In this document: in pieces, positions 16,485-59,522 of the stretch
Position numbering within the stretch: position 1 is the first letter of the stretch
How the letters are laid out: each line of letters begins with the position of its first letter
Assembly: GCA_951406725.2 (NCBI GenBank)
Contig: OX597825.1
Span: 86,676,001 to 86,740,000 of the forward strand
Origin: Octopus vulgaris
Lineage: Eukaryota
Reading direction: 5' to 3'
Length of the DNA: 64,000 nucleotides
Notes under the pieces: generated by a model
Database searches by the model: none
Seen by the model: the letters and a program-made list of their open reading frames with translations, nothing else
Told to the model about the DNA's origin: nothing
Translations under genes and position numbers: made by a program

Positions 16485-16517
16485 TTTCTGACGAAGAGCT
16501 CCGCTCGAAACGTTAAA
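16485..16517 (+). ncRNA. Minimal type-I hammerhead ribozyme, family A (module ~16407-16620)
   Basis: UUU-CUGACGA-A-GAGC(UCC)GCUC-GAAACGUU-AAA: canonical core, 4-bp stem II, palindromic ACGU stem III, 3-bp stem I. Confidence 0.75.
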
Positions 16518-16704
16518 CCCTCCTTCCTCCCTTCCTTCCTGAGCGTCCAATAATACTATATTTGTTCCACGTCCTCGAGTTGTTGTGTTTTCTCTTTGTG
16601 TTTTCATGTTTGGATTAACTTTACATATATATATATATATATATATATATATATATATATGTATATGTATCAAATGAAATAAAAAGCAGAACACAAAGGA
16701 TATC

Positions 16705-16796
16705 GCGGTACACGTGTTTCAAGCTTTATAAAACAGCTTATTCTTACATCAATGTATAATCGACATAACAGATGGTTTAAAGCCCTCTTCAGCCGC
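16705..16796 (-). ncRNA. Type-I hammerhead ribozyme with long stem II
   Basis: GCGG-CUGAAGA-GGGCUUUA...UAAAGCUU-GAAACACGUGUA-CCGC: stem I GCGG/CCGC, palindromic ACACGUGU stem III, GUA site. Confidence 0.85.
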
Positions 16797-17010
16797 ATGC
16801 AATTGCTACACCAAAGACTTGTATCACATTATGAAAAGTCCGAAAAAGAACATTTGGTATTATTTATAATGGTAGGTATATTGAGTTTCACTGAGAAAGT
16901 ATGTTTGTAAATCTTCATAATCAAATAGGTGTATCATCTGTCAATATATATATTGACAGACCGTTAGCTCCTACACGCATTTTTTTCTCTCCTTGTTTCT
17001 TTTCTGTGTA

Positions 17011-17048
17011 TCTTTCTGTCGAAGAGCGTAGGCTCGAAACGTAAAAGA
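17011..17048 (+). ncRNA. Minimal hammerhead, family A, A6U core variant
   Basis: UCUUU-CUGUCGA-A-GAGC(GUAG)GCUC-GAAACGUA-AAAGA; module ~17000-17150 is nearly identical to 39562-39710. Confidence 0.7.
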
Positions 17049-17335
17049 CTTGTTTTATTTCTATTCCTGAGCGCCATACTAATACATTTGTTTGTTTGTA
17101 CTCCACCTGCCTTCGTCTTTTGTTTATTTTCGTAAACCTTCCCGTTATATGTTCTCGGCCTGTTAACGTCTGTGTGTTGTGTGTTGGTACTTGATAAATG
17201 AAAAAATGCATAGTAAATAAGCAACGGCAGCTAAAAAACGTATTCGTATAAGACAGAGAGGGTCCCTAATTCTTCATCAGTTGTCTACCAAAATGGTAAT
17301 ACGAGTCAGAAGACATGAACATTTTAAAATATATT

Positions 17336-18087
17336 AGTGTATGAAAACATACAGGAAGAGACGACCACCATGTGGATTCCTTACATGCTAAAAATGGCAG
17401 TCGAAACCTAAAACCACGAAACCATATTCTTAGATTAAATCACGTTGACTTGAGTGAATAAAATATAGTGAACCTTATACTAATAAGTTTCGATATTACT
17501 GACCAAATAATTCAACTAATAAGATAATTAATTGATTATTTAATCATCCGTAGCTCATATTTACGTCTCCTGACTCTTCTTACTCATGCTGGCCACTGGT
17601 AAATAATTATTTAATAATTTTTAACCTTATATTTATAAAGTTAAATATTTAAATTCTTCGGCCAGAGGTTTACGTTTGAATTTATTCACTGCTGTACTAC
17701 TCTGGTGTCGCACGTTGTTTTGAGGTTATTCTGAGAGAAGAATCCAGGATGAATCAAGATGGAACTGAGTGAGTTTGTGCTTTACTTTGTGCTTTCGCTA
17801 CGTATTGCAGTTTTATGTTTATGCATTTAATTAGCAACCTTACTGATGAGCTACGGATGATTAAATAATCAATCAATTATCTTATTAGCTGAATTATTTG
17901 GTCAGTAATATCGAAACTTATTAGTATAAGGTTCACTATATTTTATTCACTCAAATGTCTTGCTCGCGTACAAGTCACGTGCTTTAATGTAAGAATATGC
18001 TTTCGTGGTTTTAGGCTTCGACTGCCATTTTTAGCATGTAAGGAATCCACATGGTGGTTTTCTCTTCCCGTATGTTTTCATACACTA
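17336..18087. mobile_element. Foldback/MITE-like element with ~220-240 bp inverted arms
   Basis: 17336-17557 is the reverse complement of 17847-18087 (few mismatches, one indel); ~290 bp spacer. Confidence 0.85.
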
Positions 18088-18765
18088 TTGTATATATATA
18101 TATATATGTATGTGTGTGTGTGTGTATATATACACTTATATACACTATGCAACACATATCGCCTCAGTTTTGCGAGTTGGCTCATCTCCCATTGATTCCG
18201 AATGGTTTCTCAGCCTCATTATAATTGCTCTGATTTCTTCTGTTAACTTCTGTGGGTTTTTTTTCCCCTTTGACACTTTTGTTCATTTAAAAAAAACTCT
18301 TCACAAACAGATGTCTGTATGTGGTCTCTGACCCTGTTAGAAACACCAACAAAATTCTTCTAAAAGAATATTGTATGTGCCTTGAAAAATAAAGATTAGA
18401 TTAGGCAATTATTTTCATAGATTAATTAATCTTACTAGTTAAAACACACTGAATGACGGAGCCTCTCCGTAGTCGCCCAGCATACTAGACATAGCAGCAA
18501 AGCTCCCCCTCATTGCAGACCCTAACTTCAGACGCAGTGAAACCGTCCGCCACAAGACCTGCTTACGTCTACCGCGGGTTTTTAAAAATACAATTTATGG
18601 CTTTACTTAATCAATATTAATGGCTAACAGTCTCAGAAAAAAATTGTTACATGTAAAGATAAACAATTGCCATCTAAAGTTTTATTTTAAATAAACAAAA
18701 TTTATATATTTTAGAGTTTTTAAAAACTTATTTTAAAACTTGATGCAAAATGTGTTCCTTATTTG

Positions 18766-19588
18766 TCATTTGGTCTTTTCTGTAGAACCCCGCTTTGGTA
18801 TTTCAGTGCGACACTCCACTGTGACACTTCAGGGTACTTCCACCCCAGTGAATGCGATGTTATTGGTCATAACATTTATAGGGTCTCCCCAATTATTGAT
18901 CAATGAGATCGATATTGAGTTGCAATTTCTCGTGTTGGACAACTGTTATTGGAAATGGAGAGAAAGGAACTTGCCGAAGATTTTGACATTGGCCAGGAAT
19001 GACTGAGATCTGCCTTTATGTTTGTGAGATAAGATGCAGTAGAGATGATGAGAAACGGAGAGGATGTATCTGTTGGAGGAAGTTGGAGGGTGTGGAGTTT
19101 GATATTGCAGAGGAGCGGGTTCTGTCCTGGTTGCTGTCGAGGTGAAAAAGAAGAGTCGGCAGTTTTTTTTTTATGTCAATCATATTAATAGGAATTTTTC
19201 AGAACATAGTTGACGATGTTTGTGTAGCAGCGGCACCGTTTCAGATGTGTGATTTGAAGGGGATTTGGTAGCTGTTTTTAGAAGTGTTGAGCGACCCCTT
19301 ACAGGATTCCCTCGTTCAATCATTATGACATCGATCAGTTTTGCAGTAGTGTTAACATCATATTAAGTAATATTTTTATCAGCCCTGGGAGTGATAATGG
19401 CGGTACTTCCGTTTTTCTATGTTGCATTATGTTGTTTTGGGTTGTGCTTAACAGATTTTGTAGAGTGAAATGTTGCCTTTTCTTTTAATAAAGATCAACC
19501 TTAACAGAACAACACTGAAAGGTTTGGTGAATATAATTAATTCTGGAGTGTTACAATTGATAGAAATAGAAAGGAAGCTTCCAGACAT
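18766..19588 (-). pseudogene. Decayed gene, possibly a Polinton/PLV-type minor capsid (penton) protein
   Basis: N-terminus MSGSFLSISINCNTPELIIFTKPFSVVLLRLIF and C-terminus FLANVKIFGKFLSLHFQ*QLSNTRNCNSISISLINNWGDPINV...SVTVECR resemble single jelly-roll mCP patterns. Frameshifted, with a repeat fragment at ~19250-19320. Pattern recall only. Confidence 0.3.
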
Positions 19589-57590: not shown

Positions 57591-58185
57591 TTTCGTAGGA
57601 CTGCCTTCCTTTCATAGAAAATCCTAAACAAAATTTTTATCTCAAGCGTACCAACTGGGCCTTCAACCTCTTATGTAGTGGACCTCGTTCGTACTCCAGA
57701 CTCCTTTTTATATTTTACGGAAAATCAAATCATTTGCACGTTTCACGATTTTATAACATTTATTAAGATATTTTTCAAGTTTTTCCCAATTTACTTCCTT
57801 CATAGAAATGGCGAAGAAGGAAGTGACTTGATTAAAATCATCTCATTAGTTATTCTGTTTTTTTCCTAAAGAGATTTCTTCAAATCCCCCCGCCTCTCCC
57901 TTCTCACCATTCCTTTTCTTAGCACTGAAAAACAAAGCTTCTACTCAGATCTATCAATAAAATTAAGTTTTAAATTTCTAAATGCCTTTCCAAACCTTAA
58001 ACTTTAAATTTACATTTTAATCCGGAGGCGCCTGAATTAATGCTCAGCAAACAATTCCAAAGATGGTGGTTTTTCTTGTTTATCTTTTTATATCAACTGG
58101 GAAAAAGCAGAAACGGATTTCGGCCCGCGTACTTCCATATTAAAGAGGCACGTGAGACTGGTGATACAAAGTTCAGTCAACACTG

Positions 58186-58630
58186 CTATCTATCTATCTA
58201 TCTATCTATCTATCTATCTATCTATCTATCTATCTATCTATCTATCTATCTATCTATCTATCTATCTATCTATCTATCTATCTGTCTGTCTGTCTGTCTG
58301 TCTGTCTGTCTGTATTTTATATATTTTGTCTGTCTGTCTATATATATATATATATATATATATTATATATATATATATTATATATCTATATATATATATA
58401 TCTATATATATATCTATCTATCTATATATATATCTATATATATATATATATATATATATATATATATATATATATATATATATATATATATATATATATA
58501 TATATATATATATATATATATATATATATATATATATATATATATATATATATATATATATATATATATATATATATATATATATATACATATATATATA
58601 TATATGTATATGTATATATACATATATATA
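58186..58630. repeat. (CTAT)n/(CTGT)n/(TA)n microsatellite
   Basis: Directly visible. Confidence 0.97.
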
Positions 58631-58697
58631 TGTAATGATTGTGGATTAATAATGGTTAAATACATCGTCTGTGAGTATGAAATTCCTCCTCTTACCG

Positions 58698-58888
58698 CTG
58701 GAAATTTAAATCTTCACTATGGATTAATTCACCTTTTCTGTGAAGCTAATAAGTCTTTAAAAACCTGTGATAAGTCTGTGCATCATCCTCCTCATATCTC
58801 TGGAAATTTAAATCTACACTATGGATTAATTCATCTTCTCTTCGAAACTAATAAGTTTTTAAAAATCTGTGATAAGACTGTGCATCAT
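58698..58888. repeat. 102-bp tandem duplication (about 1.9 copies)
   Basis: CTGGAAATTTAAATCT..ACTATGGATTAATTCA at 58698 and 58800. Confidence 0.85.
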
Positions 58889-59002
58889 CATTAAGGAACT
58901 TTGGAAAACTGTTTACAACCTATATCTGCCTCTAATGGAATTATCTCCAATATTTCATGAGTATAACCTCACCCACTAAGATGTCTAGAGAACTCATATG
59001 TA

Positions 59003-59093
59003 TTTTAGCTGATGAGTACGGGACACTTTTATCTGCTGCAATTTTTGCAACTTGTAATAAAGCCTGTCTTTGTATGAAACAATTGTACTAAAA
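59003..59093 (+). ncRNA. Type-I hammerhead with long stem II, canonical core
   Basis: UUUUAG-CUGAUGA-GUACGGGACA...UGUCUUUGUAU-GAAACAAUUGUA-CUAAAA: 6-bp stem I, palindromic ACAAUUGU stem III. Confidence 0.88.
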
Positions 59094-59416
59094 ACTAATC
59101 CATTCTTGTTGCTTCTTTCTCGTATATATATATATGTGTGTATATATATATATATATATATATATATATATATACATATATATATATATATATATATATA
59201 TATATATATATATATATATATGTAATTTTTGGGACTAATGGGTATATGTCAATTAGTATGTTTAGTAAAGCACGTTCACAGTTTGGGCTACCTGGTGTCA
59301 TCCACAGTTGCGGTATATTTCCGCTGGATTTACTTCAGGAATGCCTGTGTTAGTGGAGATAATAATAATAATCGTTGAATGAAGCGGAAGATTGATTTGG
59401 CATTAGTCTTTATTCA

Positions 59417-59522
59417 ATACGACGATCGTTTCGACCTCCCCCTGGGACTGTCCTTTATAGGTGGGACGCTGTGCATCCAATTGTGTTGCATCGACCAGTG
59501 CAGTCTGGGTTACATCCGGTAC
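59417..59522 (-). ncRNA. Degenerate long-stem-II hammerhead
   Basis: GUAC-CGGAUGU-AACC...GGUC-GAAACGAUCGUC-GUAU; two core mutations. Confidence 0.45.

Follow-up and report, generated by a model that had tools for sequence, protein, structure and literature searches.

Hammerhead ribozymes (HHRs) in Penelope-like elements (PLEs), the abundance of single truncated copies and PLE-derived retrozymes have already been published (PMC4209133; bioRxiv 2026.07.22.740005); published systems are described here from the passages covered of each source. A palindromic stem III is the design described for dimer-forming PLE hammerheads (PMC4209133; review PMC6765202), and truncation, inverted partners, one-sided tails and TA targeting form the published PLE insertion structure (PMC8557442; PMC3846280). 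For the PLE named PAc, studied in vitro, the reverse transcriptase (RT) has two internal start sites, uncut RNA is the main template and insertion persists in HHR mutants (PMC11167929). For the function of the PLE hammerhead, the literature has no settled answer (PMC8557442, PMC11167929). The DNA analysed here is a stretch of 64,000 nucleotides of Octopus vulgaris, i.e., positions 86,676,001-86,740,000 of contig OX597825.1 (hereafter the window), about 3 Mb from the contig end in an assembly of 2.8 Gb and 227 contigs. (TA)n, (TATG)n and (CA)n repeats are abundant in it. Its hammerhead motifs are probably type I hammerheads in the pseudo-long terminal repeat (pLTR) ends of PLEs, left as short dead copies and likely reverse-transcribed from uncut RNA into nicked TA repeats.

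Motif scans of positions 16485-59522 gave ten type I hammerhead motifs with a canonical CUGANGA/GAAA/GUH core and pairable stems (+16488, -16792, +17843, +33421, -33758, -34532, -38220, -39856, +46565 and +59009), six with a variant core (U6 at +17016, +27514 and +39577; U3-A8 at +27324 and +47681; C4 at -41966) and four that are decayed or cut (-29075, +29876, -30384 and -59522). The core is absent from two inverted arms (about -17550 and about -46540). An earlier reading of the bare sequence (hereafter the sequence-only reading) had counted about 17 motifs, about eight of them complete; their presence on both strands stands, and the recount is 20 motifs, ten canonical. The two checks that it had proposed, against shuffled sequence and with Rfam, were run. 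A fixed descriptor gave 14 window hits, far above the mean of 0.12 (maximum 1) of 50 local dinucleotide shuffles, in which no canonical motif occurred; the descriptor overlooked +17843, and its hits include -23845, set aside as probably due to chance. Rfam gave no match to any window motif at the gathering score, and in its E-value scan the best 150 of 511 rows are dominated by microRNA-model matches to microsatellites. The motifs still stand through the descriptor scans and are real hammerhead ribozyme motifs by sequence criteria. It must be noted that Rfam misses hammerheads with a long stem II, U6 or C4. The families are lettered as follows; the clade names Neptune and Nematis are our presumption, taken from linker motifs.

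16485..16517, plus strand: family A2 minimal type I HHR, CUGACGA with GAAAC-GUU, in a module of about 220 bp (16407-16624) between TA runs
16704..16797, minus strand: family F HHR, 65-nt stem II and palindromic loop III, module about 16671-16945; no link to an open reading frame (ORF) in 30 loci
17011..17048, plus strand: family A HHR with U6 core CUGUCGA, presumed Neptune-type PLE end
17329..18093, unstranded: family B element, unit of about 530 bp, canonical long-stem-II HHR at +17838-17931
17329-17558: family B inverted arm without CUGA, preceding the unit of about 530 bp
27176..27410, plus strand: family G copy 1, presumed Neptune-type PLE end; its HHR (27317-27362) has the compensatory U3-A8 core
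27510..27545, plus strand: family A HHR, U6 core, stem II decayed
28995..29086, minus strand: family C relative, decayed core CGGAUGA, long stem II
29876..29909, plus strand: family H HHR interrupted within the core; a large fold-back holds the mirror copy (-30351-30384)
33417..33452, plus strand: family A HHR, canonical A6, module 33340-33545
33629..33775, minus strand: family I mini-insertion, HHR 33714-33761, long 3' tail, presumed Nematis-like PLE pLTR; 5' end located 3 nt above C3, short fold-back arm present
34405..34540, minus strand: family I copy 2, HHR 34488-34538; 5' end is the first base of stem I
38140..38223, minus strand: family J HHR, canonical core, 59-nt stem II
39572..39609, plus strand: family A HHR with U6 core, in a module (39558-39707) that shares 98% identity with the 17016 copy
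39774..39867, minus strand: family C HHR, canonical core, 52-nt stem II
41932..41966, minus strand: family H relative, C4 core CCGACGA
46455..46690, plus strand: family D fold-back insertion whose right arm has the HHR (46562-46643); junction located at stem I
46700..47770, plus strand: family G copy 2, with GIY-YIG C-terminal remnant (46715-46936), 3' untranslated region and TA junction
47681-47712, plus strand: HHR of family G copy 2, U3-A8 core
58632..59122, plus strand: family E insertion, truncated at the 5' end; canonical HHR 59003-59093, stem II of 60 nt; very young, presumed Nematis-like PLE
59420..59522, minus strand: decayed HHR remnant, palindromic stem III intact, core altered
60922..62027, plus strand: broken, presumed Nematis-like PLE ORF remnant (RT thumb, Cys linker, GIY-YIG) with inverted 5' part, beyond the span of the sequence-only reading

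An ORF that encodes RT plus a GIY-YIG endonuclease at the C terminus lies in cis with the repeat in families A, E, G and I, and also in the related families K2 and N; the Pfam match to GIY-YIG is weak (E-value 0.018, under the cut-off). Same-strand PLE coding sequence occurs upstream of the HHR at 4/60 loci of family A, 1/30 of E and 5/30 of G. Family A is joined to a separate endonuclease, presumably Neptune-type, and family G likewise to a presumed Neptune-type endonuclease, with the window copy (46715-46936) in addition to its five loci. The family E frame has 580 aa and lies 1.3 kb upstream of the HHR. In family I, the ORF begins just after the pLTR tail (1/30 loci). Families A, E, G and I are truncated pLTR ends of autonomous PLEs, not a separate non-autonomous class, since these copies are contiguous with PLE coding sequence. 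The sequence-only reading had proposed non-autonomous mini-elements mobilised by PLEs; for these four families the PLE origin is retained and the non-autonomy is lost, as longer copies carry PLE ORFs. The remaining window families are likely PLE pLTR ends as well.

The remnant at 60922-62027 has relatives that include an intact 717-aa RT-linker-GIY-YIG frame standing in tandems of 2.59 kb, with partners in inverted orientation (family N, L091), and its GIY-YIG part (61722-62012) has 16,266 first-look candidates in the genome. The 717-aa copies stand in tandem arrays and are very young. The family N hammerhead (C4 core) follows the stop codon shortly before the TA junction, i.e., the layout HHR, tail, TA of the window modules. 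Copies of the window families show 5' truncation, an inverted partner and a tail on one end. Within 200 nt 3' of the motif, a (TA)n run is found for 41/49 copies of A, 17/20 of A2 and 24/24 of E (background 629/2000), i.e., a (TA)n target bias. In family E, 22 places are identical across all 146 bp, the window copy counted. The family E frame (L219:2286-4025) also has a long asparagine-rich insert between RT thumb and endonuclease; such an insert is reported for rotifer Penelopes (PMC3846280). A decayed GIY-YIG-like remnant on the plus strand (33930-34230), unmatched by four PLE queries, lies between two family I modules.

Most modules had been described as pieces of 130-250 bp abutting (TA)n, several of them multicopy. 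Genome searches of several families bear out the multicopy state and the TA junctions hold; the size holds only in part, several modules being longer (B 765 bp, E 490 bp, G2 1.07 kb). The same descriptor gave 28 hits in 400 kb (40 evenly spaced 10-kb genome stretches) and 0-1 in 5 shuffles. This rate of 70 per Mb (Poisson range about 47-101) leads to an estimate of about 2x10^5 motifs genome-wide. The window, with 14 hits per 64 kb, is only about 3-fold denser than these samples; it is thus an upper-tail sample of a genome-wide feature and a special dense locus, as first read, is not supported. The large and diverse population also put forward is well founded, many families being spread throughout the genome.

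The self-complementary stem III, also pointed out from the sequence alone, is present in nearly every family: ACGU in A and A2, and stretches of 6 nt (G), 8 nt (C, D, E, F and J) or 10 nt (B and H) elsewhere. Stem II regions reach 50-65 nt in B, C, D, E, F and J. Covariation, another proposed check, was measured on 1.79 Mb of fetched loci with sequence-only anchors, on clusters found in at least 2 loci (176 singletons excluded). Across families, matched arms have 2.33 of 4 Watson-Crick pairs in stem I (1.19+/-0.13 for swapped arms) and 2.38 of 3 in stem II (1.50+/-0.10), over 45 clusters that include some chance matches and mis-parsed hits, the comparison being between families. Matched arms exceed all 2,000 arm swaps for both stems. 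All four Watson-Crick types are seen at the first stem I pair and at 15.3-16.3. The active hammerhead is the lowest-energy predicted fold of none of ten window monomers.

Family A is mostly U6 and does not have the canonical type I core: at least 4,699 copies are U6, i.e., the exact matches with CUGU(C/U)GA, CUGU(A/G)GA being uncounted. A6 is found in 106 copies and C6 or G6 in 249 (88 C and 12 G among the first 100 listed). This low A6 count relative to C6/G6 places A6 near the substitution background in family A, and the canonical A6 copy at 33421 may be a revertant from U6. An endonuclease-linked copy of family A (L046) has U6. Changes at position 6 reduce activity, A6C to <0.1 per min (PMC3088659; A6U lies outside the passages covered). 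The sister family A2 has 2,942 exact pattern matches; A6 is present in 100/100 matches listed, among which position 7 and loop II are variable. The core of family G corresponds to the known compensatory U3-A8 pair. Family K2, encountered in flanking sequence and absent from the window, has a hammerhead with 2-bp stem II and GCAA loop in 3,796 exact copies (e.g., L239, oriented 1005-1215; also L319 and L320) and is linked to a presumed Nematis-like endonuclease.

Insertion ends were redone with anchored methods, all-against-all extension being blurred by microsatellites; L056, which overlaps L055, was excluded from family A. Exact matches of family I, both arms taken together, number 7,247 immediately 3' of the cut, 7,179 within the core, 1,984 at -37..-13 and 1,448 about 110-130 nt upstream; the tail, on a single arm only, has 5,288. 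Counts thus hold past the cut site and drop by 72% where the 5' edge of stem I is crossed. A module boundary at the cut site is rejected, since family I copies run through it. Among 30 tail-picked family I loci, right arms end 3' of the cut in 1, within the ribozyme in 7, at -10..-4 in 16, at -22 in 1 and beyond -85 in 5. Distances between inverted core pairs were read by eye in the first 100 listed places per family. Among these, 25/36 pairs of family I are within 35 nt, 2 intermediate and 9 at 1.7-9.6 kb; 14/32 of K2 are within 41 nt and 18 at 0.45 kb or more; 6/24 of N are within 51 nt, the remainder being mostly at 0.3-10 kb. K2 arms end within 16 nt (12/24) or beyond 70 nt (12/24), with none between.

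The 5' peak coincides with the outer edge of stem I, i.e., -6 in I, about -13 in K2 and about -11 in N, and a TAGC motif stands at the 5' end in all three. A perfect TATA box is present in family I, 35 nt above C3 and 29-32 nt above the modal ends. The peak may possibly result from a start site, from an exonuclease that trims back to the stem, or from fold-back of the cDNA. A 3' splice site behind it is disfavoured, as no constant exon is found between the arms; a YAG does lie there, and an intron ending at helix I is described in D. virilis (PMC4209133). Inverted pairs have one long and one short 3' end in 19/19 cases (7 K2, 6 N and 6 E), which match the two internal RT starts of the Anolis element. 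In contigs of four public runs (presumed RNA; contigs cannot show RNA starts, ends or cleavage), joints match genomic fold-back junctions (family I pLTR, K2 pair).

The insertion process that we propose would run as follows: (i) the RT/GIY-YIG protein would nick both strands within (TA)n; (ii) each nicked end would prime cDNA, using either of two internal start sites that lie shortly 3' of the ribozyme; (iii) both cDNAs would pass the cut site toward the RNA 5' end and then be joined head-to-head by microhomology. Kilobase copies with 5' ends at scattered positions would come from priming in the downstream pLTR, and run-off copies of 130-250 bp, ending where the RNA begins, from priming in the upstream pLTR; in I, K2 and N this end would be the 5' edge of stem I (transcription start or trimmed end). 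Cleavage probably takes either a dimeric ribozyme or the presence of the element's protein, and insertion probably does not depend on the ribozyme. As copies likely derive from uncut RNA, there is probably little threat to host transcripts. More tentatively, PLE transcripts may start or be trimmed exactly at stem I and the protein may prime twice in the first pLTR of uncut RNA, stamping out ribozyme-only by-product insertions, so that the hammerhead fold would act mainly as a 5' cap-end and protein-loading structure. If true, a hammerhead serving as template-end structure would explain the spread of a U6-core family to thousands of copies and the swelling of stem II to 65 nt.

Several points weigh against this account. 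No same-strand upstream PLE link was found in A2 (0/20) or in B, C, D and F (0/30 each) with four PLE protein queries on 1.5-kb flanks; an ORF-linked copy of family F was sought and only short copies turned up. Where copies were chosen by BLAST rank or their position on contig 1, the sample is non-random, and the upstream counts of family I may be lowered by subfamily differences. In family E, 0/20 inverted core pairs listed are closer than 61 nt and only 1/24 arm ends lie within 16 nt, i.e., there is no ribozyme pile-up. In A and A2 (3-5-bp A-U stems), 5' ends lie mostly 50-90 nt upstream, off stem I. The ends of A/A2 and E differ in this from those of I, K2 and N, and no single rule thus holds for all families. 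The clade labels rest on linker motifs rather than on an RT tree. A Cys linker is present in both Neptune and Nematis clades (PMC8557442).

Two other explanations bear on the origin and ends of the copies. The modules might be independent non-autonomous elements (SINE-like or non-LTR retrozymes) multiplied from their own short copies by PLE enzymes in trans. All 20 A2 copies are short, without ORF and with 5' ends 35-86 nt upstream, family F copies share one 5' stop position, and non-autonomous PLE derivatives are published (PMC8557442; bioRxiv 2026.07.22.740005). Such elements are unlikely here, as A, E, G and I run on into PLE coding sequence and family I junctions are mostly copy-specific, as expected of separate events from long masters. 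Head-to-tail HHR tandems would suit such elements and occur as a same-strand tandem of about 537 bp in B (one locus, met twice among 30) and one of 136 bp in C; they are rare, however, with none in the window, and ends lie away from the cut site, unlike those of retrozyme monomers; non-autonomy is possible for A2, B, C, D, F, H and J only. Somewhat less doubtful is that the sharp 5' ends are made on the DNA side, by cDNA fold-back or trimming after both stem I strands are copied, with no discrete RNA end. The end follows stem I length in I, K2 and N, family E, with the weakest stem I (-2.7 kcal/mol vs -5.2 to -11.3), has no pile-up, and in some copies (window 33758; L276) the left arm begins with the 3' strand of stem I; self-priming at palindromes has been proposed (PMC3846280). 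However, both arms hold the core with the same stop in most tight pairs, which simple snap-back would not yield, and the position of the family I TATA box and the shared TAGC also weigh against it.

The sequence-only reading had further suggested that the ribozymes could cut any transcript crossing the region; this claim is unsupported. Hammerheads cleave in cis and only their own strand. Dispersed hammerheads kept by the host as active cis-cleavers regulating such transcripts are very improbable, even if ten canonical cores, the constant A6 of A2 beside a variable position 7 and loop II, and tight inverted pairs or tandems that might permit dimers would suit them. The A2 conservation reflects master elements, and in the largest family, A, A6 is rarer than C6/G6 and far below U6. 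The predicted monomer fold is not the active one in 10/10 cases. Fold-back arms lie on opposite strands, so that a single transcript has one in sense, paired with its mirror. Published PLE monomers show no cleavage (PMC4209133) or require the element's protein (PMC11167929). No host exon was identified by eye in 18-24 kb. The PLE pLTR origin with copying of uncut RNA is thus preferred.

Other repeats surround the modules. In the arms of a fold-back of about 1.6 kb (29300-30893) lie the family H motif, (TACA)n arrays and a portion of a family C stem II. A 130-bp near-perfect palindrome beside (TA)n (27652-27781), in which no hammerhead core was seen, could be a PLE fold-back stub. Old diverged inverted repeats (45674-46187 and 38109-38397; 67-75% identity) contain decayed hammerhead-like halves. 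Multicopy SINE-like repeats (27850-28030, 28057-28231, 48675-49250, 52034-52305 and 53584-53850) frequently abut TA runs and PLE stubs, and a 400-bp direct repeat pair (50594-50995 and 54317-54678) is 86% identical. On the minus strand, a frame with an internal 92-bp inversion (59634-59999) resembles what we take to be a LINE RT fragment, and a decayed coding-like stretch (42620-44400) presumably a piggyBac-type transposase.

A 2026 octopus repeat annotation counts 31 Penelope-like families with recent activity and 893 SINE families left unclassified (PMC13282606); in the passages covered of it, the words "ribozyme" and "hammerhead" do not occur. In such genomes, the short repeats placed among unclassified SINEs may be ends of PLEs, by inference from the present copies and not from comparison with a repeat library. 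The stem I-edge peak and these families were not found in the literature searched; Lunse et al. 2017 and supplements may cover some variants. Thousands of near-identical young copies let replication steps be read from their ends: templates look uncut, every insertion uses each of the two RT starts once and, in some families, the 5' ends have their peak at stem I. Insertion-end statistics thus make the role of the PLE hammerhead testable at exact positions.

The comparison with known systems, from the parts of these sources covered, leads to the following. (i) The minimal PLE hammerheads of Cervera & de la Pena 2014 (PMC4209133) share the type I topology, a short palindromic helix III, an additional base preceding stem II, multiple families in each genome, copies that are mostly single and truncated, opposite-strand pairs and the U3-A8 variant. 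They differ in having helices of 7-8 bp, whereas six window families have stem II regions of 50-65 nt; here U6 dominates family A and C4 is the prevailing core of the young family N, and about 2x10^5 motifs are estimated vs 2,000-9,000 there with a narrower descriptor. (ii) Endonuclease-bearing (EN+) PLEs, Neptune and Nematis (Craig et al. 2021, PMC8557442; Arkhipova et al. 2013, PMC3846280), share the C-terminal GIY-YIG with Cys linker, 5' truncation, adjacent inverted copy, one-end tail, (TA)n targets and solo pLTRs; the stem I-edge 5' peak and two-peaked sizes found here are not in the passages covered, and tails here extend to about 55-70 nt. (iii) Poseidon PAc of Anolis (Frangieh et al. 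2024, PMC11167929) shares AT-rich targets, two RT starts 3' of the HHR, an uncut template and a dispensable HHR; it is, however, one element in vitro, whereas thousands of genomic copies from other clades are considered here on sequence alone. (iv) Non-LTR retrozymes (bioRxiv 10.64898/2026.07.22.740005) share non-coding type I HHR units from pLTRs and, for B and C, occasional tandems; in contrast, copies here are mostly single or head-to-head and at least 4 families end coding elements. The octopus modules are thus a known kind of element represented by new families.

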